A stretch of 64,000 nt of DNA from Chloroflexota bacterium. GTDB taxonomy: Bacteria > Chloroflexota > UBA6077 > SHYK01. The notes beneath the pieces are model-generated. The model was not told where the DNA came from. It made no database searches and saw only the letters and a program-made list of their open reading frames with translations. This document shows, piece after piece, positions 2,958-57,421 of this stretch (within the stretch, counting starts at the first letter, position 1; every line of letters begins with the position of its first letter). The position numbers and the translations under genes are program-made. Location of the stretch: assembly GCA_035652535.1 (NCBI GenBank), contig DASRDP010000013.1, positions 6,016-70,015 of the forward strand, written 5' to 3'.

Positions 2958-3047
2958 GATGCGCGGGCCGCCGTCGCGAGCAGTGGGCGCCAAGGGCGTG
3001 TAGAATGCGAGCACATGGGCGGCGCCGCCGCCTCCGGAGGTTAGGCT

Positions 3048-12518: not shown

Positions 12519-13010
12519 TTAGGCGGCGAGCGCCTCGTAGACGAGCGCGGTGCTCAACCCGTAGATCAGATGGGGGACGACGTCGGCGGTCCAACCTGCC
12601 AATCCCCACTCGGATGGCTCAGTCGCGCCGAGGGTTGTGGCCGGCACCTCGCTCGCGGCCATCGCCGCGCCGCCGAGAAGGATGCCCGCGGCTGGGATGG
12701 GCACGTCCCGCACGATCGCGCGCGCTGAGCCGTAAAGAGCTCCGAGCGCAAGACCGACTCCATACCCCATCAGCGCGCCCAACCCTTCGCGACGGTTCTT
12801 CACTTTTTCCGAGCGACGTTGCTCGTGATGCGACGCCTCCTCGTCCGTCACCAGGCGCAAACCCGCTTTCCCGGCGATCTTGTCCGCGACCTTAGCGGGC
12901 ACCTCGCTGGGCGGGCGTCCCCGCCAGGCCATATCGATGGACGTGCTGACGTTCAGGGCCACCGTGCCAACCGCGCCGGCGGCTACTCCCGCGAAGACCT
13001 GTTTCACCAT
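12519..13010 (-). CDS. hypothetical membrane protein (Gly/Ala-rich TM segments)
   Basis: It has hydrophobic stretches at both ends and plausible codon usage. Confidence 0.45.
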   Translation of the reverse strand: MVKQVFAGVAAGAVGTVALNVSTSIDMAWRGRPPSEVPAKVADKIAGKAGLRLVTDEEASHHEQRRSEKVKNRREGLGALMGYGVGLALGALYGSARAIVRDVPIPAAGILLGGAAMAASEVPATTLGATEPSEWGLAGWTADVVPHLIYGLSTALVYEALAA

Positions 13011-13167
13011 TTGGTCCTCCCACCCCGTGTGGCGCTCTCGCTGCTGGGTCTCTTTTCAGCCTATCACGCGCGTCGATCGTCCGTTGACTCGGCCGGCCCG
13101 GGACCCTTACCATCAGATCGAAGGTCGACCGCGCTGCGCATGCGGGCGGGTTTTCGCTGAGGGGCCG

Positions 13168-14898
13168 ATGGAGAAGCTTCCACGTCGTCGACTCGCGCTG
13201 CTCACGAGTCTCATGTTCCTCCTCGTTGCAGGCTGCGGGACTCCGAGCAGTGTCCCGTCGACCGGCGGCGCCGCGACCGGCGCACCGGCCCAGTCGACCG
13301 GCCCAAAGCGCGTCGTCGCAGCGATCATGGGCGATCCGACCACATTCAGCTACGCGGTGAGCCGGGCCGGTTCGGGAGGAATCCCCGGGGTCGACGCCCT
13401 CGAGCAGCTTGTGAACGCTGGGCTGACCGAGCCCGACGACAAGGGCAGCCTGCGGCCACAGCTCGCTCAGGCAGTGCCGTCGATCGACAACGGGCAGTGG
13501 CAGCTCTTCCCCGACGGTCGGATGCAGACCTCGTGGAAGATCCGAGCCGGCGCACTCTGGCATGATGGCACACCCGTGACCTCCGACGACCTCGCGTTCA
13601 CCGTTCAGGTGGGGACCGATCGAGACATTCCCGCGCTGGGAAACGCCGCCTACGCCAGCATCGACGGCGTCGATACGCCTGACCCGTCAACCGTGATCGT
13701 GCGCTGGTCCAAGCCATTCATCCAGGCCGACGCGATGTTCACCTACAACTTTGCCGTGCCGCTGCCGAAGCACCTCCTGGAGCACGCCTACACGGACGAC
13801 AAGGCCAACTTCACCCAGGTGCCCTACTGGACGCAGGACTTCGTCGGAACCGGCCCGTTCAAGCTCCGCGACTTCTCCCGCAGCAGCTATGCCATCCTGG
13901 TCGCGAATCAGAACTACATCCTGGGGCGGCCGAAGATCGACGAGGTGGAGCTGCGATTCATTCCCGACCCGAACGCCATCATCGCCAGCATCCTCGCCGG
14001 CGAAGTGGAGCTGACGATGGGCCGCGGCCTTTCGCTCGAGCAGGCGACCCAGGTGCGCGATCAGTGGCCCGATGGCAAGATGGCCGTCTCTCTCAATAGC
14101 TGGCTCGCGGCCTATCCACAGATGTTGAACCCGACTCCGCCAATCGTCACGGACGTCCGATTCCGGCGCGCCCTCATCGAAGCGATCGATCGGCAGGCCA
14201 TGGTTGACACCCTTCAGGCGGGGCAGAGCGCCGTGGCGCATAGCTACGTTTCGCCAAATACGGCGGAGTTCAACGTGATTTCGACCAGCATCGTGAAGTA
14301 CGACTTCGACGTGCGCAAAGCGGGCGATGCGCTGCAGGATCTGGGCTACGCCAAGGGAGGCGATGGCTTCTTTCACGACGCTGCCGGACAGCGGCTGGGG
14401 CTCGAGATCCGAACCACGGGCGGGGACGACCTGCAGGAGAAGACCATGCTCTCGATTGCCGATAACTGGCAGCATCTGGGCGTGTCCGTCGACCCGGTCG
14501 TCGTCCCGCGCCAGCGCGCAGCAGATCGGGAGTACCGGGCCAACTTCCCCGCGTTCGAGGAGGTCCGCCAGCCCAATGACCTCACGCCCGACTCGCTGAC
14601 CCGTTACTACGGCCCGGAGTCTGCGCTGCCGGAGAACCAGTACCGCGGTGGCAACCGGATGCGCTACCAGAACCCCGAGCTGGACGCGCTGATCGAGCGT
14701 TTCTACGTCACCGTCCCCAAGGCCGATCGCGAACAGGTGCTGGCACAAATCGTCCACCACATGACGGACCAGGTGATCCCCATCGGCCTCTTCTACAATG
14801 CCGGACCCATCATGATCGGGAATCGACTCCTGAACGTCGGGGCTGGCGGGTCCCAGGCGACGCCAGCCTGGAACGCCGAGCAGTGGGACGTGCGATAG
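13168..14898 (+). CDS. ABC transporter substrate-binding lipoprotein, family 5 (DppA/OppA-like)
   Basis: It starts MEKLPRRRLALLTSLMFLLVAGCG, a signal peptide with a lipobox. It is a full-length paralog of the SBPs at 1..1616 and 37851..39608. Confidence 0.85.
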   Translation: MEKLPRRRLALLTSLMFLLVAGCGTPSSVPSTGGAATGAPAQSTGPKRVVAAIMGDPTTFSYAVSRAGSGGIPGVDALEQLVNAGLTEPDDKGSLRPQLAQAVPSIDNGQWQLFPDGRMQTSWKIRAGALWHDGTPVTSDDLAFTVQVGTDRDIPALGNAAYASIDGVDTPDPSTVIVRWSKPFIQADAMFTYNFAVPLPKHLLEHAYTDDKANFTQVPYWTQDFVGTGPFKLRDFSRSSYAILVANQNYILGRPKIDEVELRFIPDPNAIIASILAGEVELTMGRGLSLEQATQVRDQWPDGKMAVSLNSWLAAYPQMLNPTPPIVTDVRFRRALIEAIDRQAMVDTLQAGQSAVAHSYVSPNTAEFNVISTSIVKYDFDVRKAGDALQDLGYAKGGDGFFHDAAGQRLGLEIRTTGGDDLQEKTMLSIADNWQHLGVSVDPVVVPRQRAADREYRANFPAFEEVRQPNDLTPDSLTRYYGPESALPENQYRGGNRMRYQNPELDALIERFYVTVPKADREQVLAQIVHHMTDQVIPIGLFYNAGPIMIGNRLLNVGAGGSQATPAWNAEQWDVR

Positions 14899-20681: not shown

Positions 20682-20716
20682 GGTGGGTATTCTACTTTGT
20701 GGACGAGGTCTTGGAA

Positions 20717-31006: not shown

Positions 31007-32296
31007 ATGGGCGCCGCCGGTCCCTCTCGCATGGCTCTCGCCGACTTCGAAAGACGCTGCCGTGAGGTCCTCGGCTCGGCCCATTGCCGCGAGCGAGGCG
31101 CCCTGGACCTCGAAGCTGGGCCGGGAGTCCTCCTCGATCCAGCGGACGAGACACAGGTCGCGGCCGTGCTGCGTCTCGCCGAAGAGCGCGACCTCGCCGT
31201 CGTTCCGCGCGGCGGAGGAACGAAGCTGGAGTGGGGAAACGCGCCCCAGCGCGTCGACGCGGTCCTGTCAACGGCACGACTATCGCAGGTCCTCGAGCAC
31301 GCCTGGTCCGACCTGACGGTGACCGTCGAGGCCGGCTGTACCGTCGAGAACCTCCAGCGACGACTGGCCCAGCATCGCCAGCGGCTGGCCGTGGACGTGC
31401 TGTGGCCGAGGACGGCGACGGTGGGCGGCATCCTCTCCGCGAACGACTCCGGCGCTCTTCGTCTGCGCTACGGAGGACTTCGAGATCTCGTCATCGGCGC
31501 CACCGTCGTGCTCGCGGACGGGACCGTCGCGAAAAGCGGCGGCAAGGTGGTGAAGAACGTCGCGGGCTACGATATCCCGAAGCTCGTGACTGGCGCCTTC
31601 GGAACGCTGGGGGTGATCACGCGCGCGACATTTCGCCTGCACCCGCTTCCCCACGAGACGCGGACCCTCACCATTGGCCCCGCTTCGGCGGCCGAGATAG
31701 CCGATATCGCAGCCCGTATTCGCGCCTCGCCGCTGACGCCGTCGGCCGTCCAGATCCGCCTCGCAACCGGCGCCGGGGCAGAAGCTGACGTCTTGCTGGA
31801 GGGCACGACCGAGGGCGTCGGGGAGCAAGAAGAAGAGATCTCCGGACTGTGCGGCGCGATACGCGCGGCAGCCGGTCCGACGCACGCGTGGCAGGCGCGC
31901 GAGCGCCTGTGGGACCAGAACGCCGAAGGGGCGATCCAGGACCCGGCCATCGTCAAGATCTCGGTGCTTCCGACGGACATCTCCATCGTGGCGTCCATCC
32001 TGGGCAAGATCGAGCGGGAATACAGCGCAACGTGGCGCGCGGTGATCCAGGCGCATGGGCTCGGCTTGGTCGCAGTTCGTGCGGAAGGATCGAGGATCGT
32101 TCCCCTTCTGGCGGCCCTTCGGAGCGCAGTCGAGGAGCGCGGTGGATCTCTCGTGATTCTGCGCCGACCACCGGAGGCCCGGGGCGTCGACGCCTGGGGC
32201 GCACCGGGCGATGCCCTGCCCCTCATGCGGGCGGTCAAGGCGCAGCTCGACCCGCGCGGCGTCCTCAGTCCGGGCCGTTTTGTTGGCGGGATTTGA
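31007..32296 (+). CDS. glcE: glycolate oxidase FAD-binding subunit GlcE
   Basis: It has an FAD_binding_4-like domain and sits between glcD and glcF. Confidence 0.8.
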   Translation: MGAAGPSRMALADFERRCREVLGSAHCRERGALDLEAGPGVLLDPADETQVAAVLRLAEERDLAVVPRGGGTKLEWGNAPQRVDAVLSTARLSQVLEHAWSDLTVTVEAGCTVENLQRRLAQHRQRLAVDVLWPRTATVGGILSANDSGALRLRYGGLRDLVIGATVVLADGTVAKSGGKVVKNVAGYDIPKLVTGAFGTLGVITRATFRLHPLPHETRTLTIGPASAAEIADIAARIRASPLTPSAVQIRLATGAGAEADVLLEGTTEGVGEQEEEISGLCGAIRAAAGPTHAWQARERLWDQNAEGAIQDPAIVKISVLPTDISIVASILGKIEREYSATWRAVIQAHGLGLVAVRAEGSRIVPLLAALRSAVEERGGSLVILRRPPEARGVDAWGAPGDALPLMRAVKAQLDPRGVLSPGRFVGGI

Positions 32297-45512: not shown

Positions 45513-46664
45513 TCAGGTGGGAACGATTTCTGCCGTCGGATCCAGCGCGCCGACCACGTTGTACGCCGATACGCTCCGGTGAAAGCCCTTCAGCTCGAAG
45601 TCGCCCACATGCTCGCAGTTCACGAGCTGTTCCACGTCGGTGAGCACGCGCTGGGTGATCAGAATCTGCCCGGGGCCGGCCTCCGCGCAGAGGCGCGATG
45701 CCTGGTTCACCACTGAGCCGATAGCCGTGTAGTCGAAGCGGCCCTCGAAGCCCACCTTGCCCAGGGTGGCGTACCCCATGGCAATGCCCGCGCCGAAACC
45801 GAGATCGTATTCGCGCTTGTGCCACGAGGCCGCCAGCGCTTGCAGCTCCCGTCGCATTCCGACGGCCATACGAACGGCCCGCGCGGCGGGATCCGGACAG
45901 GGCACTGGATCGTTGAAGAACACCATCAGTCCATCGCCGGCGAAAAATCCCACCGTGCCCTCGAAGAGACGAACCTGCGCCCCCGCCGCCTCGTGGTATT
46001 CCCGCAGCACGGCCATCAGCTCCTCCGGCTCCGCGGTCTCGGAGAAGGCGGTGAACCCGCGCAGGTCCGCGAAGACGACGGCGATGTGCCGGCGATGGTC
46101 CTCCAAGAGCGATTGGTCATTCGCGCTCATGATCGCTTCGGCTAACGGTGGCGAGAGGAAGCGGCGAAGCTGATTCAGCCGCTCCAGCTCCGTGACTTGC
46201 TCGGTCACCCGCTGCTCCAGCGTTCGATTGATCTCGGCCAGCTCCAGGCTCTTCGCCTTGAGCTGGTCCTGATAGTCCTTGACCCGCAGCAACGAGCGGA
46301 CCCGGGCGAGCAGCTCGGCGCGGTTGAGGGGCTTGACGATGAAGTCATCCGCGCCGGCATCGATCGTGTTCAGCTTCTCCTGCTCGCCGCTGGCCGTGAT
46401 CATGATGACGGGAAGCAGACGGGTCGTCTCAGCACTGCGCAGCTTCCGACACAGGTCGTACCCGTCCATGATGGGCATGACGATGTCGGTGAGGACCAGG
46501 TCGGGCATATCGCTCGTGATACGGTCGAGCGCCTCTCGTCCGTTGGTCGCCGTCGAGATCGCGTAGCCGCGGGGCTCGAGAATCCCCTCCAGCATGCGGA
46601 TGTTGGCGGGAACGTCGTCGACGATGAGAATCTTCGCCCGAGGTGATTCCGTCTCGGCCATCAC
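45513..46664 (-). CDS. response regulator with class III adenylate/guanylate cyclase output domain
   Basis: An N-terminal REC domain (ILIVDDVPAN...DLVLTDIVMP) is followed by a coiled coil and a CYCc domain (VVFADLRGFT...). Confidence 0.85.
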   Translation of the reverse strand: MMAETESPRAKILIVDDVPANIRMLEGILEPRGYAISTATNGREALDRITSDMPDLVLTDIVMPIMDGYDLCRKLRSAETTRLLPVIMITASGEQEKLNTIDAGADDFIVKPLNRAELLARVRSLLRVKDYQDQLKAKSLELAEINRTLEQRVTEQVTELERLNQLRRFLSPPLAEAIMSANDQSLLEDHRRHIAVVFADLRGFTAFSETAEPEELMAVLREYHEAAGAQVRLFEGTVGFFAGDGLMVFFNDPVPCPDPAARAVRMAVGMRRELQALAASWHKREYDLGFGAGIAMGYATLGKVGFEGRFDYTAIGSVVNQASRLCAEAGPGQILITQRVLTDVEQLVNCEHVGDFELKGFHRSVSAYNVVGALDPTAEIVPT

Positions 46665-46665
46665 G

Positions 46666-48618
46666 TCATCCGACCGGCCGCGGGCTGCTGCACAGCTCTC
46701 GGACCTGAACCGGGAACTCCTTGATGTTCAGCGGCTTCGTGAGATACCCGTCAAAGCCTGCGGAGGCGATCCGCTCCTGCTCGTCCTTCATGGCAAAGGC
46801 GGTTAGGGCGACGACCTTGACGTCCGCCGTCGCGCGATCGGCCCTGAGGTGCATGACCGCGGCGATGCCGTTCATCCCCGGGAGCTGGATGTCCATGAGC
46901 ACCAGATCGGGCAGGTGCCTCCGCGTGAGGGCGATCCCGTCTTCGGCGGTCTCGGCGGCCAGCGTGCGGAAGCCATGCACCTCGAGTGCGTCGCGCGCCA
47001 GGCGCACGTTCCGCTCATCGTCGTCGACGATCAAGACGAGGTGCGACCCCGGGTGCGTTTCCCGGGCGACCTCTTTGGTGACATCTCGCGCAAGCGGAGG
47101 AGGCTCCACGGCAACCGCTGGCTCGTCCACCGACGCCCGACGGACGAGGGGCAGGGTGAACGAGAACGTGCTGCCTTTGCCGAGCTGGCTTTCCAGCCAC
47201 ATCACGCCCCCATGGAGCTCGACGAAGTGCTTCGCCAGCGGAAGGCCGAGACCGGTCCCCTCGTGCTTGACGTGTGAGGAGGTGCCGACCTGCTGGAATT
47301 CTTCAAAGACCCGCGGCTGATCGGCTTCCGCGATTCCCACGCCGGTGTCCCTGACGGAGATCCGGAGATAGTCCCCGTCCGGTTGCGCTTCGACTGTGAT
47401 GGCCCCGGCGTCCGGAGTGAATTTCACGGCGTTGGAGAGGAGGTTGAACATGATCTGCTTGAACTTGCGCTCGTCGGCCTCGACGAGGTCCACTTGGGGC
47501 GAGACGTTCATCGACAGGGTGATGGCGTGGTTGGCGGCGCGCTCGCGCACGATCGACAGCGCGGATTGGAGCGCCTCCACCACCGAAAATGACGTCCGAT
47601 CCAGCTCCATCTTGCCCGCCTCGACCTTGGCCAGGTCGAGGATGTCGTTGATCAACGCGAGGAGGTGATTTCCCGAGTTCAGCACGTCGCGAAGATAGAC
47701 TTCTTGCTTCTCATTGAGCTGGCCGAAGCTCTTCTCGAGCAACAGCTCCGAGAATCCAATGATGGCGTTCAGCGGCGTGCGAAGCTCGTGGGACATGTTG
47801 GCGAGAAATTCCGACTTGTGCTGGTTCGCCAGCTCGAGCTGGCGGCTCTTTTCGGCGAGGTCCCGCGTGCGGTCCTGCACGCGGCGGTCCAGCTCGTCGC
47901 GAGATTGCCGAAGCGCCTCGAGGGAGCGACGCCATCCCGCCTCGGTCGTGCCCATGCGCTGGAGAATCCGCGCGAGGGTGCCGATCTCGTTGGGCCGCTT
48001 GGCGAGATCGTTCACGCTGTCAGGCTTGAACGTGTACGCGTCCAGCGCCTCTCCGGCCTTCCCGATTCGGACGACGGGCTCGCTGAGGAACCGGGCCACG
48101 AAGAGCGAGACGACGCCGCCGACGATAATCATGAGGACCGTCGGCCCGCCGGCCAGCTCGACCTGGTGGACGAAGGCCGCGGCCACGCGGCCCAGCGAAA
48201 GGGTCGCGAGCACGGCCCCCAGCGGCTCCCCTCGGACGCTCAGCAGCGGCGCCGCCGCCTTGACAGTGCCGCCATCGAACCGGCTCACCGGCGCCCGACG
48301 CGTGATCGCGTCGTTGAGACTCCGGGCATCCGAGTCGCTCAGGGGGCTGAGGCTCGCCTGTGGCCCGCTCATCGCGGTCGTGGTGGCGTCGGCGTCCACC
48401 ACGCGAATCGCGGTCACCGCACCGGTCGCCACGACGTTATTCAGGTAGCTCGCCACGTCCGCCTCGTCCGTGAGCTGCGCGACCGCCGCCGACACCACGA
48501 CGGCGTCCTGCTCGACCTGGGCTCTCGTCCCGTTCCACATGAGGGCGGCCGCGGTGAGCAGCATGGCGACGACCGTGAGCGAGGGGATGGTAATCGCCAT
48601 TTGGGCTCTAATGCGCAC
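46666..48618 (-). CDS. hybrid sensor histidine kinase (2 TM, periplasmic domain, HAMP, HisKA, HATPase_c, C-terminal REC)
   Basis: It has an H-box [14 protein letters not shown] and a C-terminal receiver [11 protein letters not shown]...[14 protein letters not shown]. Its stop lies 2 bp from the response-regulator-cyclase start. Confidence 0.85.
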
Positions 48619-48784
48619 GAAACGTCCTTTCGCAGCGCCGCGCGAGGGGCCGCCGGTCTGGCAGCTGGCTTGGCGGGCGGGCGACGGGTGAGGCTGGCGG
48701 CGTCAAACCGTCACCCCTCCTTCCGCACGCTGGTGACTATCGTCGGAACATGCTGCGTCGTTGGCACCGTATTGCGTGGGCAAT

Positions 48785-48860
48785 GTTATTACAAAATCGT
48801 AAACACCTCAATTGTCGCGTGACGATAGCATTACGAACTCATGCAATGAGACGTATGTGT
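48785..48860. promoter_or_regulatory. conserved bipartite AT-rich intergenic element, copy A
   Basis: It contains TTACAAAATCGTA, then TAGCATTACGAACTC exactly 37 bp later. It lies in a roughly 130-bp AT-rich island unusual for this genome, about 50 bp past the stop of the methyltransferase gene and about 170 bp upstream of the hybrid histidine kinase start. Confidence 0.5.
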
Positions 48861-48915
48861 GCCATAAGAACGAGTTAAGAACGCAGGCGATACATGTCCG
48901 CATCAAGTCTCAGCC

Positions 48916-49641
48916 CTATGCGCGCCGATATCCTCCGAGCAGCGTCATGCCAAGCCTCTTCCAGAAGCAATCGACGGCTTCGAAGCCGGCATCCCGCAAG
49001 AACCCGAGGTGCTCGCCGACCGTGTCCCAGTAGTGGCCAGGCGTGGGCGCGCGGCTCCCCCGATCGGGGTCGGCGTCCACGGGCTCCCCTCTCAGGATCC
49101 GCCCCGCGTCGCGGTACCGCGCGCGCAGATACGGGTCGCTCGGGAGGATTCCGTCCAGATTCAAAAAGCAGCCGCCTGGCGTAAGGGCGCCGTAGATCGC
49201 CGCGTAAAGCCGCCGCTTCTTTTCGGCCGGCAGGTGGTGGATCGCCCGCGACGACACCACGGCTTCGAACGACGAGCGGAACTCGGCGGGCAGATCTCCA
49301 TCGATGAAATCCCCGAGCTGGTAGCGAAATCGCTCTCCGTAGGCCGCCATTCGCTCGTTCGCGATATCGCGCATTGGCTCGGAAACGTCCAGCCCGACGG
49401 CGCGTGCGTTCGGAAACGCGTCCAGCACCAGGGCGGCGACCGCGCCCTGACCCGTCCCCACGTCCAGGACACGAATGGATCCTTCTCGCGCGAACGGGAT
49501 CAGGCTCACCATCACCCGAAAGCCGTCCGCCCGCTGCATTGCGTCTCGATCGGTCCGCTCCACGTATTCCCGGGCGAGGGACGGGTCGTTCCACGCGTGG
49601 CCGTAGCGTTCCACATAGGCCTGCCCCGTGAGCTGCTGCAT
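48916..49641 (-). CDS. class I SAM-dependent methyltransferase
   Basis: Motif I VLDVGTGQG is present. Confidence 0.8.
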   Translation of the reverse strand: MQQLTGQAYVERYGHAWNDPSLAREYVERTDRDAMQRADGFRVMVSLIPFAREGSIRVLDVGTGQGAVAALVLDAFPNARAVGLDVSEPMRDIANERMAAYGERFRYQLGDFIDGDLPAEFRSSFEAVVSSRAIHHLPAEKKRRLYAAIYGALTPGGCFLNLDGILPSDPYLRARYRDAGRILRGEPVDADPDRGSRAPTPGHYWDTVGEHLGFLRDAGFEAVDCFWKRLGMTLLGGYRRA

Positions 49642-49763
49642 CTGAACCTCCGTTCCAGTCCTTTTGGTCGCCGATCATATCCCATGGAGTCCGAACGCGC
49701 CGGCGCCGCCGGACACGGTGGTACACTGCGCATGACTCGTCCGTTCGATCCCGGAGGTCAGCC

Positions 49764-50954
49764 GTGCGCTTCTACATGTTCCACCTCATGCCGTGGCCAT
49801 ACTTGCCCGACGACTTCGGGCAGACGCACGATACCGCCTGGGTGATCTGCGAGAACACCCTCTACGACGCCGAGCGCGGACACGACCTCTACAACCGCTA
49901 CCTGGACGAGCTCGCGCTGACCGACACCCTCGGCTTCGATGGCGTTTGTGTCAACGAGCACCACCAGAACGCGTACGGCCTGATGCCGTCGCCCAACATC
50001 ATCGCGGCCTGCCTGAGTCAGCGCACCACCCGCGTCAAGATCGTCATCCTCGGCAACGTGCTCAGCATCTACGACCATCCGCTTCGGGTTGCCGAAGAGG
50101 TCGCCATGCTGGATGTGATCAGTGGCGGGCGCGTGGTCTCCGGCCAAGTCGTCGGCACGGGAAACGAGTTCTTCTCTTACAACGTCAACCCCACCTACGC
50201 GCGCGAGCGCTACCACGAGGCGCACGACCTGATCCTGAAAGCCTGGGCGGAGCCGGGCCCGTTCGCCTGGGAGGGCAAGCACTACCGGTTCCGGTACGTG
50301 AACGTCTGGCCGCGGCCCCTGCAGCGACCACACCCGCCGGTCTGGATTCCGGGCTCGGGCTCCTACGAGACGATCGACTGGGTGGCGAAGCAGCGCTATA
50401 CGTACATGGTGCTGCCAACCCTCGCGCCGTACGCGCTGCGCGCACGAACGGCCGAGCTGTTTCGGGAGGCGTGCCAGCGTGAGGGCTATACGGCGCGGCA
50501 CGAGCAGATTGGCTGGGGCGTGGGCATCTACGTCGCGGAGTCGGATGCGCGCGCCGTCGAGGAGTACGAGCCGCACTTCTGGTACTACGCCAAGAACCTG
50601 CTCCGAAATCGGGAGACCTTCAATCATCCCCCCGGCCACTCCTCGGTCGCATCCATGCTCGGGCTGCTCGAGGCGCGGCGCAAGGGGCGGCCGGGCAACT
50701 TCTCGACGTGGGAGGAGATTCAAAAGGAGGGCTTTGTCATCGTGGGCAGCCCCGCTACTGTCCGTGACCGGATTAAAGAGATCGCCAGCCACACCGGGCT
50801 GGGGACGCTCCTCCCCAACTTTTCCGTGGGCAACCAGCCATACGCGATGACGCGCACGAGCATGGAGCTATTCGCCAGCGAGGTCATGCCCGCGCTGCGC
50901 GACGTCAACGTCGATACCCCGATCGAGCCCGCGCTGGCACGAGCCACGGCGTGA
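49764..50954 (+). CDS. LLM-class flavin-dependent oxidoreductase
   Basis: It has a luciferase-like TIM-barrel (NEHHQNAYG, LGNV). Confidence 0.85.
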   Translation: MRFYMFHLMPWPYLPDDFGQTHDTAWVICENTLYDAERGHDLYNRYLDELALTDTLGFDGVCVNEHHQNAYGLMPSPNIIAACLSQRTTRVKIVILGNVLSIYDHPLRVAEEVAMLDVISGGRVVSGQVVGTGNEFFSYNVNPTYARERYHEAHDLILKAWAEPGPFAWEGKHYRFRYVNVWPRPLQRPHPPVWIPGSGSYETIDWVAKQRYTYMVLPTLAPYALRARTAELFREACQREGYTARHEQIGWGVGIYVAESDARAVEEYEPHFWYYAKNLLRNRETFNHPPGHSSVASMLGLLEARRKGRPGNFSTWEEIQKEGFVIVGSPATVRDRIKEIASHTGLGTLLPNFSVGNQPYAMTRTSMELFASEVMPALRDVNVDTPIEPALARATA

Positions 50955-51718
50955 CGGAGGAGACGGTCCGGGAGATCGGCGGCTACTCCACCCGGCTCCT
51001 GCAAGCGGGCCTGGGCCCCGACGTCATCTGGCTGCATGACACGCTGGGAAACCTGTGGACGCCTGGCCACGAGGCCCTCTCGCGCGGCGCGCACGTGATC
51101 GCGCCGACCCTCCCCGGATTCGACGACTCGACGAATCTCGATGGCATCGATGAGCCCGAGGACGTGGTTTTCTGGCTGCTCGATCTCCTGTCGGAGCTAC
51201 GGCTCGATCGTCCGGCGGTGCTCGGTTGCGGGCTGGGCGGGTGGATGGCAGCCGAGCTGGCCGTTCGCTACCCGGAGCGCGTCGGCCGCCTGATCCTCGT
51301 CGACGCATATGGCCTCCACGTCGACGGTGCGCTGCCGGCAGACGAATTCGCGCTTCCGACTCCTGCGCTTCGCCCGCTCCTGTTCCGTGAGCCAGACGGC
51401 GCGCTGGCGCTCCAGTGGCTCCCCAATGTCGTTCCTCCGGAACGCGCGGCGGGCGTTCTCCACGCGCGTGTGGCCGCCGCGCGCCTGGCGTGGCAGTTTC
51501 CCTACTCCCCGAAGCTCCGGGGCAGGCTCCGGCGCGCGAATATGCCGTCGCTGATCCTCTGGGGCGCCCACGATGGCCTGGTGTCCACCGCGCACGCCCG
51601 CGCCTATGCGGACGAGCTGCCACGCTCGCGCAGCGTCGTGGTTGAGTCCGCGGCCCACTACCCCTACATCGAGGAACCGGACCGCTTCGCCGACGAAGTT
51701 CGGCGCTTCATCAGCTAA
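50951..51718 (+). CDS. alpha/beta-hydrolase-fold protein with nucleophile Ser replaced (G-C-G-L-G-G elbow)
   Basis: It has an MhpC/BphD-like alpha/beta fold and a GTG start overlapping the LLM stop. Catalytic Asp (WGAHDG) and His (SAAHYP) are retained, but the elbow reads LGCGLGG instead of G-x-S-x-G. Confidence 0.7.
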   Translation: MTEETVREIGGYSTRLLQAGLGPDVIWLHDTLGNLWTPGHEALSRGAHVIAPTLPGFDDSTNLDGIDEPEDVVFWLLDLLSELRLDRPAVLGCGLGGWMAAELAVRYPERVGRLILVDAYGLHVDGALPADEFALPTPALRPLLFREPDGALALQWLPNVVPPERAAGVLHARVAAARLAWQFPYSPKLRGRLRRANMPSLILWGAHDGLVSTAHARAYADELPRSRSVVVESAAHYPYIEEPDRFADEVRRFIS

Positions 51719-51740
51719 CGGGGCGGGTCCGCGACGGATT

Positions 51741-52256
51741 CTAGAATCGGTCCCAGTGCACGAACTGTTCGATGGGCTTGCGGGGCTGGGGGTTCTTCGG
51801 GCGGGCGCGCCGAACGGCCTCGTCCACGTGACCCACCGCTACGACGGAAAACGACCGTCGGTCGGGTGGGATCCCGAAGTACTCGCGGGCGGCGGCGATC
51901 CCGTCCCCTTTCAGCGTGGCGACGGTCGATCCAAGCCCGTGCGCGGCCGCGGCCAGGTTGAGCCGCTCCGCCAGCCGCCCTTCGTCGAAGGCGGCGGCAT
52001 CGCTGTTGCTGACGATCAAGAACACCGCGGCAGCCGTCGGGGCGGGATTGGCGCCCCATTCCCCCATCTTGCGCTTGGCCTCTGGGTCGCGCACCACGAT
52101 CACTTCCCAGGGCTGCCGGTTGCTCGCGCTTCCGGTCCAGCGCCCGACCGTGATGATGTCGTCGATGACGGCGTCCGGCACCGGCTCCGGCGTGAACGCC
52201 TTCGTCGAGCGGAGGCGCCGCAGGAATTCGATGCGCTCACGGGCTGACTCCGTCAT
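51741..52256 (-). CDS. nitroreductase family protein
   Basis: It has a nitroreductase fold and is about 171 aa. Confidence 0.8.
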   Translation of the reverse strand: MTESARERIEFLRRLRSTKAFTPEPVPDAVIDDIITVGRWTGSASNRQPWEVIVVRDPEAKRKMGEWGANPAPTAAAVFLIVSNSDAAAFDEGRLAERLNLAAAAHGLGSTVATLKGDGIAAAREYFGIPPDRRSFSVVAVGHVDEAVRRARPKNPQPRKPIEQFVHWDRF

Positions 52257-52292
52257 CCCCCATACCTCGATCGATGTCGCACAGACACGAAT

Positions 52293-52769
52293 TCAGTCCC
52301 GCTTGTGGTAAACACGGTCGTCCTTCTCGCTGATGCCACCCACCTTGGCTGATATTCGGTACATCACGAGGGGCTCGGAGCCAGAGTTCTCAAACCAGTA
52401 CATGGTGTTCCGTGGCACCAGCACGGCCTGGGTTCGACCGGCTCGCGCGAGGATCCCATCATCAGCGCCGTGAAAGGTGACCTCTCCTTCGACGACGACC
52501 CACACCGCGTCCCCGTCGGTGTGGTGGTGAAGGGCAACTTCTCCGCCCTCGTCCCAGTGGTGAAGCAGGACGCTGAGCAGCTCGCTGCGCGCCAGCCGCT
52601 TTACGTTGCGCTCACTGGGATTCCAGTCGGTGTTGACGACCTCAACCGGGCTTTTTGGCACTGGCCTTGCGTTCGATAGCTCCACCACCGGTATTACCTC
52701 CAACGGTAACATCCGCAAATTTGTCCCAGCACATTCAACCCGGGACCCGGGGGGCATGTCAACCATCAT
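52293..52769 (-). CDS. cupin domain protein
   Basis: Only the 3' roughly 477 nt of the long ORF 52293..53657 is cupin-like (HHHTDGDAVWVVVEGEV...). The 5' part is the antisense frame of the aldolase gene. Confidence 0.5.
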   Translation of the reverse strand: MMVDMPPGSRVECAGTNLRMLPLEVIPVVELSNARPVPKSPVEVVNTDWNPSERNVKRLARSELLSVLLHHWDEGGEVALHHHTDGDAVWVVVEGEVTFHGADDGILARAGRTQAVLVPRNTMYWFENSGSEPLVMYRISAKVGGISEKDDRVYHKRD

Positions 52770-52916
52770 CGTTCGGTAACCGTTTCTCCGTGGGCACCAC
52801 GCCCGGCGCGTTGGCTTTCCTGCATCGGGCTCGCCCGTCGTTCGTCTCACCGAGCCTCGCGCTACAATCGCGGAACGCCGTCGGCACACGTCGGCCGGAA
52901 TGGATCGAGGGAGGCG

Positions 52917-53633
52917 ATGATGACCAGTGCGGAAGAGGAAGCGCGGGAGAAGCTGGCCCAATGCGCGCGGGCCCTCGCCCGGATCGATTGTCTCGGCCTT
53001 GGGGGCCACGTCAGTCTCCGGATTCCGAAGAGCGACCTCATCTTGATCACGCCTGGTGGCGGGCTTGACAAGACCCGGCTGCGCGCCGGCGACATGTCGG
53101 TCATGGATGCGACCGGCAAGCACGTGGGCGGGCCGTATCCACCACCGCTCGAGTGGCCGATCCATACCGCGGTCCACGCCGCGCGCCCTGAGCTGGACTC
53201 CGTCGCGCACCTCCATCCGCACTGGTCGACGATCTTCGGCGTGCTGGACAGACCCATGGACGCGGTCCTGCTCGGGGCGGCGCGCCTCGGCGATCGGATT
53301 CCCTGGTTCGAGGTGCCCAAGCTCGTCACGTCGCCGGCGCTCGGCGAAGAGCTGCGAGCGGCGCTCGCCGACGCCCCGGCCGTGCTCATGCGTTGGCACG
53401 GAAGCACGGTGGTTGGCGACACCATCGAGGAGATGTTCGAGCGGGCCAGGGTCATCGAAGACAACGCTCGCCTCCTCTGGGAAGCGAGCCTCATCGGAAA
53501 GGTCGTGCCCGTGCCTCGATCCATCGGCGGGCCGCAGGTTCGTGGCGCCTCTCGAACCCTCGGCTACTACGCCAATTTGGAGCGCCCCACCGACGATCAG
53601 CAATGGATCGGAACCGAGCGGCTCGAACCCTGA
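52917..53633 (+). CDS. class II aldolase/adducin-family protein (possible decarboxylase/aldolase)
   Basis: It has the Aldolase_II fold (LGLGGHVSLRIP... HLHPHWSTIF). A GGAGG ribosome-binding site lies upstream. Confidence 0.8.
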   Translation: MMTSAEEEAREKLAQCARALARIDCLGLGGHVSLRIPKSDLILITPGGGLDKTRLRAGDMSVMDATGKHVGGPYPPPLEWPIHTAVHAARPELDSVAHLHPHWSTIFGVLDRPMDAVLLGAARLGDRIPWFEVPKLVTSPALGEELRAALADAPAVLMRWHGSTVVGDTIEEMFERARVIEDNARLLWEASLIGKVVPVPRSIGGPQVRGASRTLGYYANLERPTDDQQWIGTERLEP

Positions 53634-53686
53634 CTCTGGGGTGATAGAATCGCGCAATCGTCCACAGCGATCGGGAGGAGGACGCG

Positions 53687-54694
53687 ATGCTCGACGATCA
53701 GCGACCGGGAACCGTCCATTGGATCGATCACTACGCGGTCGGTACGAACGACCTGGAGCGGTGGGTTGAGTTTCACGAGCGGGTTCTCGGCGCCCGAACG
53801 ATTCGCCCCAACCGCCCCAACCCGATCAACATCTTTCAGGAGTTCACGGGCGGACGGCACGGCGGATTCGTGCAGCAGGCGACGCTTCCTCCGAGCGCCG
53901 GTCCCGGCAAGGGGCTGCCGCGCTACGGCTTTTTCGTCCGACAGGCGGACATCGACGAGCATCTGCGGCGTCTCGACGACTGCCGCGCGGCGCATACCGG
54001 CGCCATTCGCACGTCCAGCGACGGGGAAGAGGGGATCGCCGTCTACTGGGAAGACCCAGACGGGAATCAGTTCGAATTCTGGGCCCCGAACACCCTGCCG
54101 GAGGGCGCCATGGACGGCTGCGGACCGCTGAAGATCGGCCGCATCAGCCACGGGGTGTTCGAGTCACGCGACCTCCAGCGCACCGCCGCGTTCTTCGATA
54201 AATACTGCGCCCTCGAGCCGATGTCGAGCGCCGATCTGGCTCCCGATACCCTGGTGCTGCCCCTGGCCGCGGGCGGTCGGCTGGTATTTAAGAAGACCGA
54301 CATGCCTGGGGAGCGCACGACTGGCCGTGGGATCCTGCGCGACGTTCACACGGCTCTAGTGCTCCGGCCCGAGGACTTCTGGCCGGCCTACGAGCGCATG
54401 TGGGCAGACTTGCCCGAGTGGGACTTCGACGCCGAGCGCGACGGGGTGTTCGCTGGCGACTGGCAGAGCCTTCCCGCGCGCACAGCCGTCCATCCGAGTC
54501 CTGCCGGGCGAGCGTGGCACGCCGCGTACGGCCGGGGTGACGACTGGTACGATCCGGACACCAACCTGTTCCACTTCTTCGGGGGAACGCCCATCGACGG
54601 AAGCATGGCCCGATACGAGCCGCATTCCATCGAGGACTATGCGCAGGAGTACCTCGAGGCTCACGGCTTGCGCTACGACAAGCCCAAGTATTAG
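53687..54694 (+). CDS. two-domain VOC (glyoxalase/extradiol dioxygenase) family protein
   Basis: Two babbb VOC modules (HYAVGTNDLERWVEFHERVLGA and ISHGVFESRDLQRTAAFF) are present. Confidence 0.7.
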   Translation: MLDDQRPGTVHWIDHYAVGTNDLERWVEFHERVLGARTIRPNRPNPINIFQEFTGGRHGGFVQQATLPPSAGPGKGLPRYGFFVRQADIDEHLRRLDDCRAAHTGAIRTSSDGEEGIAVYWEDPDGNQFEFWAPNTLPEGAMDGCGPLKIGRISHGVFESRDLQRTAAFFDKYCALEPMSSADLAPDTLVLPLAAGGRLVFKKTDMPGERTTGRGILRDVHTALVLRPEDFWPAYERMWADLPEWDFDAERDGVFAGDWQSLPARTAVHPSPAGRAWHAAYGRGDDWYDPDTNLFHFFGGTPIDGSMARYEPHSIEDYAQEYLEAHGLRYDKPKY

Positions 54695-54762
54695 CGGGTC
54701 AGCTCGAGGTGGCGGCGGGGGGAAAAGCCCCGGCTACTAGATTGTGCCCGAGAAGTGGCCCA

Positions 54763-55200
54763 CTAGCGGTGCGACGCCGGCGGGCCGAGTTGAATGACCT
54801 CGCCCTCCGCGGGAGGACGTGCTAACCGCGCTTCGTCGGAGCAGGCGGGCCACAGATCGCGCAGCTCGCCGGCGAGCCGATCGGCATAGCCGCGCAGGGA
54901 CTCGACGAATCGAAGTGTGACATCCGTCCGGTCTGGACTCTGGCCACGGACCTCGTACGTCACGAGGGGCCAGGCGGCGGCGTTTTGCCCATCCCCCCGT
55001 CGCGCCGCGTACCATCCCGAGAACCATGGGGTCGCATAACGCCGGGTTCCCGGCGGCGACGCGTGGCGGAACACCACGACCATGTTGGCGTCCGGAGGCG
55101 ACGGGCGCCGGCCCCACACGGTGAAATCAAGCCATTCCAGGACGTACTGCTCGCGCCCGCCGAGAGAGACCTCGATGTGACCATCTGACGAATCGGCCAT
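54763..55200 (-). CDS. hypothetical protein
   Basis: I chose the internal ATG (MADSSDG..., AGGA 9 nt upstream) over the full ORF start at 55308. The longer version would run through the conserved non-coding AT-rich element. Confidence 0.45.
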   Translation of the reverse strand: MADSSDGHIEVSLGGREQYVLEWLDFTVWGRRPSPPDANMVVVFRHASPPGTRRYATPWFSGWYAARRGDGQNAAAWPLVTYEVRGQSPDRTDVTLRFVESLRGYADRLAGELRDLWPACSDEARLARPPAEGEVIQLGPPASHR

Positions 55201-55227
55201 CGGCGTGTTCCTAGACAACCGGGTAAC

Positions 55228-55303
55228 AACGTTACAAAAACGTACGCTTTGCGCTTTCTCCCTTATTCTAGCATTACAAATTCCTGAAACGAGAAGAGTG
55301 GCG
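55228..55303. promoter_or_regulatory. conserved bipartite AT-rich intergenic element, copy B
   Basis: It contains TTACAAAAACGTA, then TAGCATTACAAATTC exactly 37 bp later, start to start. It matches copy A in motif identity, spacing and flank. Confidence 0.5.
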
Positions 55304-55354
55304 TGCACCGCGCTGCATTGAGCGACGCGTTATGCTGCGATCCGGCACGAGCAA

Positions 55355-55840
55355 TTAGCACGCTTCATCCGCCTGCGGCGCCAACACTTGCGCGGACTCG
55401 GGTGCGTCCGTCACCTGTTGCTCGGCCAAGCGCATCTCGTGGTACTGCTGGGCCCTCGCCACCAGGTCGGCGTAACCGTACGTCCGCGACATCTCGCCGC
55501 CTTTCACAGACGCCTTCACGGAGAACCCCTCCGCGTCCTCGCGGATACTCACGTTGGTGGCCTTCATCTCGTCCAGGTCGCGGCCCAGCGTCCGCAGCAG
55601 CTCCGCTGGGCTGAACCGATGCATGCTGTTCTCGATGCCGCGGTGCATGGCCGCGGCCTTTCGCAGTGCCCAGACGTCCTGCGGCTGGTACCGCTTGTCC
55701 ATCCGGTGTCCGTGGCGATCCGTCCACGTGAGCTGGAGATGCAGCTCTCGGTCCTGGATCCGCACGTTGAGGGCCCGGATCTCCTCCAGGAATCGCCCGA
55801 GGGCCCGTAACGTATCCGAGTAGTCGCCTGGAGCGAGCAT
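55355..55840 (-). CDS. hypothetical protein with internal tandem duplication of a ~60-aa domain (paralog 1)
   Basis: It holds two repeats, LRALGRFLEEIRALNVRIQD... and LRTLGRDLDEMKATNVSIRE.... A paralog at 57630..58067 has the same two-repeat layout and a conserved (E/D)YSD.LRALGRFL.E N-terminus. Confidence 0.6.
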   Translation of the reverse strand: MLAPGDYSDTLRALGRFLEEIRALNVRIQDRELHLQLTWTDRHGHRMDKRYQPQDVWALRKAAAMHRGIENSMHRFSPAELLRTLGRDLDEMKATNVSIREDAEGFSVKASVKGGEMSRTYGYADLVARAQQYHEMRLAEQQVTDAPESAQVLAPQADEAC

Positions 55841-55930
55841 TCCACAGCCCCCAATTTGACCTGGCGCGTGAGGATGGTACACGAAGGCGTGACCCGGCCG
55901 CAGCGCAGCGCTCTGGCAATCGGACCCTGC

Positions 55931-56329
55931 TCAGCGGGTCGACGCTGGACTGGGCGCCCTCCGTTGCATAGCCATGTGCGCGGCCAACGCGATGAGGAGC
56001 GCCGCCTCGATCGCCTTCGAAGCATATCCGAGCCCCCTGGGGTTGGGAAGGCCGTAGACGACCCAGCCGACGATCGCGGCGGCCGCGAAGAGCGCCAGCC
56101 CCGCGTCGACCACCCACGCCCATGGGCGCGGGTGGCGAGCGGTGATCAGGACCGCTCCAACCAGGATGACATAGCCGATCGCGTTCAAAACGAAGAGCTG
56201 GTTGAGCGGCAGGAACAGCCTGGGCGGGGGCCCGGGCACCGGGCCGAAGAGGTTACCCCTGAACAGGATGAAATCGAGCGCGAAATGAAGCACGCCGTCG
56301 GCCAGCGCGAGCGCGACGATGACCCACAT
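55931..56329 (-). CDS. small hypothetical membrane protein (~4 TM)
   Basis: It has hydrophobic helices (MWVIVALALADGVLHFALDFILF...). The start is uncertain (56329 or 56368). Confidence 0.5.
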   Translation of the reverse strand: MWVIVALALADGVLHFALDFILFRGNLFGPVPGPPPRLFLPLNQLFVLNAIGYVILVGAVLITARHPRPWAWVVDAGLALFAAAAIVGWVVYGLPNPRGLGYASKAIEAALLIALAAHMAMQRRAPSPASTR

Positions 56330-56461
56330 CAACAAGCGCGATTGGTCGGGGGAGGGTGAGGTGCGCACGGGACCGGGCTCCGAAGATGGTCGAGTATGGC
56401 CGTCCCGGAAATTTTCTCAAACGCGTAGCCTACTGTCAGGTCGCCGAACGGTTAAAGCCCC

Positions 56462-57421
56462 TCACGACTTCTGTTCAAACGCTGGCGGATGGCCGAACGT
56501 ATGCTCGTAGTCTCGCTGCAGCTCATCAGGAATGAAGCGCTGCTCGATCTCGCGGACGAAATCGGCGTTTACGAGCTTCGAGGACGATGCGGGACCCCAA
56601 CGACTAGATCGAAACTGTTTGGCCCAATCGTCGATGGCGGGGGATCCGCGCTCCTTCAAGTCGTTCAGGACCTGCCACGCGGCCTGAACAGCGGCGGTTG
56701 CCGCGATCGTCGGATACAGCGCGATTCGCGCGCCAAGGGACCGGAGCTCCTCGGTGTTCGGTCCTGGCTGTGGTCCACCCCATAGCGGAAGCACCGGGGC
56801 CGGAATCCGCTGGCAGGCCTCGCGCAGCTCATCACGCGTGGTAACGTTGTTCAGCCATACGAAATCAGCGCCCCCGTCGGTGACGTAGGCGATCGACCGA
56901 TCGAGGGCCTCGGAAAAGTTTCCGCCCTCGGACCCCATCACGTCGCACCGAGCGCAGATGACGAAATCCGGATCGATCTCGTTCTTGGCCGCGACCGCCG
57001 CTTGAATCTTGCCAATCGCCTCTTGTTTGGAGATGCAGCGTCGACCCGAGACCGTGCCGGACTTCTTCGGCGCCTCCTGGTCCTCGATGTTGACCGCAGC
57101 CACGCCTGCCCGCACAAACTCCTGAACCGCGTAGTAGACGTTCACGGCGTTGCCGTAACCCGTGTCGGCGTCGACCTGGATCGGAATCGTGCATCGAGCC
57201 GCTACGTGCCGCGCGTGGTCCACCATGTCGCGAAGGCCGATGATACCGACGTCCGGCACGCCGTAGAGAAAGCCAGACGTCTGCGAGCCGGCGATGAAAT
57301 ACGCTTCGAAGCCAACGACCTCGGCCATCTTGGCGAGAAGTGGGCTGAAGCCGCCGGGCATGACAAACAGCTCGGGCCGATTGATGCGCTCGCGAAAGCG
57401 AGTCGTCGCCTTCGTCGCCAC
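56462..57421 (-). CDS. isocitrate lyase / PEP mutase superfamily protein with non-canonical active-site loop
   Basis: The family core (VMPGGFSPLLAKMAE, IQVDADTGYGN, NIEDQ) is present. A GTG start is preceded by GGAAGGAG. The loop after EDQ reads APKKSGTVSGRRC in place of the K(K/R)CGH of ICL/methylisocitrate lyase. Confidence 0.75.
   Translation of the reverse strand: MATKATTRFRERINRPELFVMPGGFSPLLAKMAEVVGFEAYFIAGSQTSGFLYGVPDVGIIGLRDMVDHARHVAARCTIPIQVDADTGYGNAVNVYYAVQEFVRAGVAAVNIEDQEAPKKSGTVSGRRCISKQEAIGKIQAAVAAKNEIDPDFVICARCDVMGSEGGNFSEALDRSIAYVTDGGADFVWLNNVTTRDELREACQRIPAPVLPLWGGPQPGPNTEELRSLGARIALYPTIAATAAVQAAWQVLNDLKERGSPAIDDWAKQFRSSRWGPASSSKLVNADFVREIEQRFIPDELQRDYEHTFGHPPAFEQKS

Follow-up and report, generated by a model that had tools for sequence, protein, structure and literature searches.

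In the gal (OE/OI with GalR) and lac (O1/O2/O3) systems, a promoter is bracketed by operators that lie on the same helical face and mediate cooperative or looping repression. Two copies, A and B, of an element of 80 base pairs (bp) rich in adenine and thymine (AT), located in a 64,000-nucleotide (nt) stretch of DNA from a Chloroflexota bacterium (assembly GCA_035652535.1, contig DASRDP010000013.1; the whole stretch is hereafter called the window), recall this arrangement: each holds two similar putative sites separated by an integral number of helical turns (42 bp), one upstream of a candidate -10 hexamer and one downstream of the predicted transcription start. The spacing is, however, much shorter than in gal and lac, and the half-sites are direct repeats and not full palindromes. 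A second point of comparison is provided by Mycobacterium. In M. smegmatis, whose genome is likewise high in guanine and cytosine (GC), mapping of transcription starts yielded a TANNNT -10 without a -35 consensus (PMC6448022). As in sigma-70-type promoters with an extended -10 (TGn), and in the -10-dominated TANNNT promoters of high-GC bacteria such as Mycobacterium (PMC6448022), A and B have a TG one base upstream of TAnnnT and no recognisable -35; they lie upstream of a same-strand gene, and the hexamer (that of B) is found again before many genes of the genome and is retained upstream of orthologues. Unlike ordinary extended -10 promoters, they carry ~60 bp of additional conserved AT-rich sequence, the hexamer of copy A is weak, and the transcription starts are predicted ones. 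The occurrence of the same bipartite sequence before two unrelated transcription units, with leaders of 58 nt versus 215 nt, is also reminiscent of transcription-factor regulons, from which the present case differs in comprising just two sites, both within 6.4 kb.

The A/B pair adds one more example to a well-known kind of element, from a lineage about which little is known. The similarity of the two copies exceeds chance, and they most likely represent a protein-recognised DNA element and not coding sequence, as the sequence-only reading of this DNA had argued. That A and B are promoter regions is a prediction that we consider quite probable; the fuller model, in which a single design of regulated promoter, with a shared operator, is present twice, is the one towards which we lean, with less assurance. 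According to this model, the housekeeping sigma factor would recognise an extended -10 in the core of motif 2 (TGC-TAGAAT in B, TGC-TATCGT in A) and transcription would start ~7 nt past the hexamer, in which case the 80-bp element would span ~-42 to +37. Copy A would drive an operon encoding a hybrid histidine kinase and a response regulator/cyclase, and copy B an orphan gene of 145 amino acids (aa). One regulator would sit on the two TTYGTAA-type half-sites, 42 bp or four helical turns apart, and this common regulator would place the kinase operon and the orphan gene under common control; the co-regulation of the two units is a putative one.

The window has an overall GC content of 66.9%, somewhat below the ~69% first estimated, and at a cut-off of ≤45% GC in 60-nt windows it contains only the two AT-rich islands that had been singled out, 48746-48898 and 55206-55308. 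Copy A (48778-48857, minus strand) lies between the stop codon of a methyltransferase gene at 48916 and the kinase start at 48600, and copy B (55221-55300, minus strand) between the stop of the gene P1 at 55355 and the start of the orphan gene at 55200. Both copies are therefore situated between two minus-strand genes, ~55 bp past the upstream stop (~50 bp had been given). The ungapped alignment of A and B confirms a two-copy element made of two blocks, but its extent is ~80 bp rather than ~75 bp, the conservation reaching ~11 bp further to the left (GGGYAAY-NNN-RTTAC); over the shorter extent initially described, 43 of 76 positions are identical. By block, 17/24 positions are shared in the left block and ~24/32 in motif 2 (~25 had been counted), whereas the spacer, with 6/24, is at chance level and indeed unconserved. 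The alignment contains no indel across its 80 bp and includes exact runs of 8 and 9 bases, 9 bp being the longest.

Motif 1 occupies 48789-48801 in copy A (TTACAAAATCGTA; TACGATTTTGTAA on the minus strand) and 55232-55244 in copy B (TTACAAAAACGTA; TACGTTTTTGTAA on the minus strand), which in both is ~+15 to +27 relative to the start as predicted. The shared pattern TTACAAAA-N-CGTA, which begins at 48789 and 55232, matches at 12 of 13 positions, in agreement with the original count. Motif 2 lies at 48826-48857 (A) and 55269-55300 (B) on the minus strand, ~-42 to -11; it is opened by TAGCATTAC at 48826 and 55269, followed in both copies by the patchy R-AA-Y-TC-N-TG-N-AA-N-GAGA. The start-to-start distance between the motifs is 37 bp in both copies, which follows from the whole alignment being ungapped. 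Some finer points of the sequence-only reading did not withstand scrutiny. Owing to a counting error, the repeated half-sites (TTACRAANNCNT) had been placed ~3.5 helical turns apart, but they are separated by 42 bp, i.e. 4.0 turns; ATTAC was said to be common to the half-sites of both motifs, but the first half-site of copy B reads GTTAC; and the inverted repeat TTAC...GTAA in motif 1 is present in copy A but not in copy B. A plus-strand open reading frame (ORF) over copy A (48812-49033) is, as had been noted, not conserved in B, and since it also has no family match we rejected it as a gene.

The similarity of A and B is real and statistically sound. It had been proposed that it should survive local alignment with shuffled controls, and it did: when the two whole intergenic regions are aligned locally, the top score is 17, as compared with 9.5 ± 1.3 in dinucleotide shuffles, and the observed score was reached by one of 2000 shuffled pairs. 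Shuffling the AT-rich cores alone gave the same outcome, so that AT-richness does not explain the similarity.

The element is best understood as a minus-strand feature, both flanking genes being on that strand. Reverse-complemented, the strongest block reads GTAA-TGC-TAGAAT in copy B and GTAA-TGC-TATCGT in copy A, and the pattern TGnTAnnnT occupies one and the same alignment column in both copies, oriented toward the downstream genes. The candidate extended -10 is TGC-TATCGT at 48822-48830 in copy A and TGC-TAGAAT at 55265-55273 in copy B, both on the minus strand, which would put the transcription starts near 48815 and 55258 and give leaders of ~215 and ~58 nt, respectively. The distance from hexamer to start codon is 64 nt in B and 221 nt in A, as against 31-41 nt in typical promoters of the window; both leaders are thus longer. 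An alternative-sigma promoter had been among the original proposals, the motifs having been described on the opposite strand. The promoter part of that proposal is favoured by our analysis, but on the minus strand and with an extended -10 of the housekeeping type (TGnTAnnnT).

Support for this hexamer comes from its recurrence. TAGAAT is found nine times in the window versus 4.0 expected, a count reached in 1 of 100 shuffles, and eight of the nine lie in non-coding DNA, which makes up ~13% of the window. Sites are located at 3001, 12072, 28832, 41365 and 53645 on the plus strand and at 20689 and 55265 on the minus strand, and five of them (3001, 12072, 28832, 53645 and 55265) precede a start codon on their own strand by 31-64 nt. 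TACAAT (14969 and 52863, plus strand; 57477, minus strand) is similarly positioned upstream of three further genes. Moreover, GGTGATAGAATCGCG is invariant upstream of the glyoxalase genes of the window and of two relatives, L062 and L063 (77-78% aa identity), while its flanks diverge; a further glyoxalase relative is 80% identical, and TGATAGAAT is likewise invariant upstream of three glyoxalase orthologues. We regard the invariance of GGTGATAGAATCGCG as a phylogenetic footprint, showing that this lineage uses such a -10. Together these results show TAGAAT to be the upstream hexamer of this genome; the apparent housekeeping -10 is TAGAAT or TACAAT in a GC-rich context; no -35 consensus is visible in any promoter candidate of the window. 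The convergent hydrolase and nitroreductase genes are separated by 22 bp, and this gap contains a perfect palindrome, ATTCTAGAAT (51738-51747), which reads TAGAAT on either strand; the position is not that of a promoter. We also considered a small upstream ORF starting from the ATG inside GTAATGCTA (MLE* in B, MLSSRDN* in A). It was rejected because the peptides differ and because its ATG, which overlaps the -10, would be untranscribed under the promoter reading.

The other promoter candidates of the window carry the hexamer in GC-rich surroundings, and only in A and B is it flanked by conserved AT-rich sequence. Since ordinary promoters here manage with the hexamer in such surroundings, the flanking blocks call for a separate explanation. 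On the minus strand they read TCTCnTTnCAnGAnTTYGTAA upstream of the -10 and TACGnTTTTGTAAY-nnn-RTTRCCC downstream. They include TTYGTAA half-sites at ~-22 to -16 and ~+21 to +27, which, being 42 bp from one another, are on the same helical face. In copy A, motif 2 holds the distal half-site (TTCGTAA) together with the TG/TA of the extended -10, and motif 1 contains the proximal one. The operator initially suggested for the element is a reasonable interpretation of these blocks, which retain ~70-78% identity at fixed spacing around the -10; they may be binding sites for one regulator. As the half-sites bracket the -10 and the start, this putative regulator is more likely a repressor. The left end of motif 1 is overlapped in both copies by a 13-bp palindrome without strand at ~+24 to +36, imperfect in copy A (GCAAT-GTT-ATTAC, 48780-48792) and perfect in copy B (GTAAC-AAC-GTTAC, 55223-55235), its symmetry being kept between A and B through one double change. 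RNAalifold pairs these columns (74-86) on the minus strand, where the differences between the copies amount to one compensatory and one G-U change; with two sequences, these changes are no more than suggestive.

Among described binding-site consensus sequences (CRP/FNR TGTGA-N6-TCACA, NtcA GTA-N8-TAC, CIRCE, the LexA, CodY, Rex and ARG boxes and the BirA operator), none is known to fit both copies. A search of the literature for the motifs returned primer sequences only. Other sequences in the vicinity may be pertinent to regulation. Upstream of copy A only, at 48865-48882 (minus strand, ~-67 to -50), there is a direct repeat, GTTCTTA-ACTC-GTTCTTA, with an 11-bp period. It is similar to PhoB/OmpR boxes, which are 7-bp repeats with an 11-bp period, but it is outside the shared element, is absent from B, and is only mildly unlikely by chance (~0.03, our own estimate); it could be a response-regulator site acting on the kinase operon, or a chance occurrence. 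A third AT-rich island of the same genome, outside the window (L066, 6682-6774; minimum 40% GC), lies between a multicopper-oxidase gene and a divergent solute-binding-protein gene, and is placed either ~300 bp or 7 kb to the left of the window. It has its own inverted repeat, ATTAGTC-N25-GACTAAT, unrelated to A/B. This island, too, combines an intergenic position with a repeat, in keeping with the notion that such islands mark regulated promoters here. Finally, ~2.9-3.7 kb right of the window end (L020, 12895-13707) a gene encodes a 270-aa protein with cyclic-nucleotide-binding and YozE SAM-like domains, in which no classical helix-turn-helix domain was detected. Situated ~20 kb from the response-regulator/cyclase gene, it is a possible reader of the signal made by the cyclase.

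Several observations weigh against the regulated-promoter model. A profile built from A and B found, with nhmmer, no third copy in the window and 10 kb extensions (~74 kb of the same genome) or in ~46 kb from relatives; its matches were confined to A, B and the copy of B in L020. With two copies from one strain, conserved positions are inseparable from chance identities. The relatives with 66-78% identical glyoxalases are non-syntenic around that gene and therefore provide no conservation test there. The hexamer of copy A, TATCGT, agrees with TATAAT at 4 of 6 positions and is without the support from recurrence that TAGAAT has. A second -10-like hexamer inside motif 1 (TACGAT in A, TACGTT in B) means that the start could lie 26 bp downstream. 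The extended pattern TGnTAnnnT is not enriched in non-coding DNA, with 5-6 occurrences against ~5 expected from composition, a figure that is partly our own estimate; it is TAGAAT, and not the TG extension, that carries the promoter case. Lastly, Pfam and other domain searches identified no gene or domain of a DNA-binding regulator in the neighbouring genes examined.

Searches further afield were of limited bearing on the number of copies. The pattern TTACAAAANCGTA-N22-26-TAGCATTAC retrieved from 185,579 species genomes only orthologous coding sequence in two Nostoc genomes, and TTACAAAANCNT-N24-26-TAGCATTAC retrieved from Joint Genome Institute (JGI) metagenomes 38 matches, on contigs of 26-57% GC and with no similarity beyond the pattern, which are taken as chance. 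As neither scan returned the source locus itself, they say little on copy number in the source genome. The conserved coding sequence that the pattern matches (…LRDYILQNR…ALALH…) was seen in seven Nostoc-like contigs (L001, L002, L028, L034, L037, L040 and L061) and is unrelated to the element. Contigs from five further assemblies of the strain span copy B with 100% identity and hence offer no informative variation. None of the indexed same-strain contigs spans copy A: one (L019) starts at the equivalent of 48745 and another (L003) ends at the equivalent of ~49002. These breaks may reflect low coverage or heterogeneity at the locus; short contigs are the rule in those assemblies. The sequence TGTTACCGT upstream of the cupin gene (52703) was examined as a diverged third copy and discarded, as it overlaps the ribosome-binding site and is not detected by nhmmer.

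The alternative that fares best is common descent without common regulation, i.e. that one of the two promoter regions arose as a copy of the other, for instance by recruitment to the orphan gene, and that the likeness is what divergence has left, with no need of a shared regulator. The copies are 6.4 kb apart in the same orientation and have undergone no insertion or deletion relative to each other, and the gene downstream of B has no homologue and a weaker codon-position GC signature, as expected of a young gene. Neutral decay would, however, be expected to spread mismatches evenly, instead of which the spacer retains 6/24 identities and the blocks ~70-78%. Besides, the similarity is confined to the element; flanking DNA and flanking proteins are unrelated, for which reason a segmental duplication was rejected. 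Duplication of the promoter region is compatible with the regulated-promoter model and not exclusive of it, but alone it does not explain the block pattern, and as a complete account we find it rather unlikely. Still bolder, and in our estimation doubtful, is the view that a regulator specific to the lineage uses the 80-bp module as operator and promoter and so ties a cyclic-nucleotide signalling operon (hybrid kinase and receiver-cyclase) to a strain-specific orphan gene. In a stronger version of it, expression of the orphan gene would have begun when it acquired a duplicate of the promoter that serves the kinase. If true, this would expose to view a stage in the origin or domestication of a new gene in an uncultured Chloroflexota lineage.

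Next to be weighed is a chance likeness of two AT-rich promoter regions, in which the motifs shared beyond the -10 would be meaningless. Matches are inflated in low-complexity AT-rich DNA, the -10 by itself accounts for some of the strongest block (TAGCA and one further A), and there are just two copies, with no third in the DNA searched. Yet, besides the single composition-keeping shuffle in 2000 that attained the alignment score, comparison with the other promoters of the window speaks against coincidence. When promoters are aligned by their -10 hexamers, 47 of the 90 flanking positions agree between A and B, as compared with 24 ± 4.3 (maximum 34) for the other 65 promoter pairs, and none of 20,000 shuffles reached 47, with the qualification that this test is partly circular, the register of copy A having been taken from the A/B alignment itself. 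Without the TGC extension, 44 flanking positions are shared versus 22 ± 4.1, again reached in none of 20,000 shuffles. The burden of multiple testing is small because the pair was fixed beforehand as the only two AT-rich islands. Chance is, in our judgement, improbable.

An alternative-sigma promoter of the extracytoplasmic function (ECF) type or of the sigma-54 type, with the motifs serving as -35/-10 or -24/-12, is very unlikely. Two blocks at fixed spacing do resemble a two-element promoter, and a signalling operon and an orphan gene are of the kinds often placed under alternative sigma factors. Nevertheless, the distance of 37-42 bp between the blocks greatly exceeds the 16-18 bp of -35/-10 and the 12 bp of -24/-12 promoters, and neither an ECF pair of the GGAAC/CGT type nor GG-N10-GC is common to both copies. 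A sigma-54-like TGGCAC-N4-TTGC at 48762-48775 (plus strand), left of copy A, is one base short and absent from B, and copy B possesses a consensus housekeeping hexamer.

We attach an equally low probability to an element acting at the RNA level, whether hairpins or a U-rich tract in the 5' leaders of both mRNAs, to which a protein might bind or which might influence translation, or a small non-coding RNA. Motif 1 would be transcribed (~+15 to +37), and RNAalifold predicts on the minus strand two 5-bp hairpins with two compensatory and two one-sided, pairing-keeping changes; one of them, GUAAY-NNN-RUURC, tolerates the A/B difference as a G-U pair on the minus strand only. No claim can be built on these minus-strand hairpins, given their weakness and the small number of sequences (two). 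The consensus energy is -3.95 kcal/mol on the minus strand and -1.25 kcal/mol on the plus strand, and the consensus folding term is just -1.95 kcal/mol. On both strands the single-sequence folds are no better than those of shuffled sequences (z +0.2 to +0.65), and the hairpins in the minimum-energy folds differ between A and B. Motif 2, which makes up half of the conservation, precedes the predicted start. No Rfam family reached gathering score anywhere in the window, none matched at the elements at E ≤ 10 (48000-56500), and no intrinsic terminator (a GC-rich hairpin followed by a T run) was found at either element (48400-55700). The structured non-coding RNA entertained in the sequence-only reading thus received no support.

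Recombination or mobile-element sites are extremely unlikely: the copies do form direct repeats (att-like or element ends) bracketing a 6.4-kb block of metabolic genes (48860-55220), and relatives with similar glyoxalases are non-syntenic around that gene, but the bracketed and adjacent genes include no integrase, transposase or recombinase domain, the GC content of the block is like that of the rest of the window, att repeats normally have one contiguous identical core where these are bipartite with a longest run of 9 bp, and a looser pattern had in viral contigs 11 matches, all in DNA of 27-49% GC and taken as chance.

The order of genes around the copies was established from codon-position GC and Pfam. 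The hybrid histidine kinase gene (46666-48600, minus strand; HisKA, HATPase_c and receiver domains by Pfam) encodes 644 aa, and its closest full-length homologues are 51-53% identical. The ATG at 48600 is the start on record in public assemblies and lies 185 bp from the element, close to the ~170 bp originally given. It is presumed to be the first gene transcribed from copy A, and is followed by the gene for the response regulator/nucleotidyl cyclase (45513-46664, minus strand; Pfam). Upstream of copy A is the methyltransferase gene (48916-49641, minus strand). Between it and the glyoxalase gene (53687-54694, plus strand) come, in order, genes for a luciferase-like monooxygenase (plus), a hydrolase (plus), a nitroreductase (minus), a cupin (minus) and an aldolase (plus). 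The orphan gene (54763-55200, minus strand), presumably transcribed from copy B, lies downstream of that copy, and P1 (55355-55840, minus strand) lies upstream of it, beyond which are P2 and a gene of the methylisocitrate-lyase/phosphoenolpyruvate (PEP)-mutase family, both also on the minus strand. The start at 55200, on which the placement of copy B had depended, is called as an ATG in five independent assemblies, which makes copy B non-coding.

The proteins of the window match those of a metagenome-assembled Chloroflexota bacterium from soil. The orphan protein has a sole match among 5.8 billion proteins, namely itself, and no match in Pfam, NCBIfam or the PDB. Its codon-position GC is 0.73/0.56/0.77, with a third position of 0.77 versus 0.81-0.87 in the neighbours. 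Structure models from single sequences (AlphaFold for the orphan), intended to reveal a DNA-binding fold, had mean predicted local distance difference test (pLDDT) scores of 50 for P1 and 34 for the orphan protein and were unusable.

The pair opens no new class of element and has no bearing on a long-standing question. If our reading is correct, it would nonetheless supply a first sketch of promoter architecture in uncultured high-GC soil Chloroflexota, with a TAGAAT/TACAAT -10 and no -35 consensus, and a concrete candidate for a pair of regulated promoters coupling a two-component/cyclase operon to an orphan gene. It would also help annotation and the design of expression tools or reporters for such organisms.

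Two further features of the window were noted. ARAGORN reports a tRNA-Met at 32189-32264 (plus strand), inside the 3' end of the ORF 31007-32296, but nowhere in the window does a tRNA reach the gathering score of Rfam; this is probably a false call, or else the ORF is over-extended. Two paralogous genes for family-5 solute-binding proteins, at 45-1616 and 12880-14898 (plus strand), are exactly 13,273 bp apart and have patches of 71-83% DNA identity, and more SBP_bac_5 genes are present in the window and its extensions.

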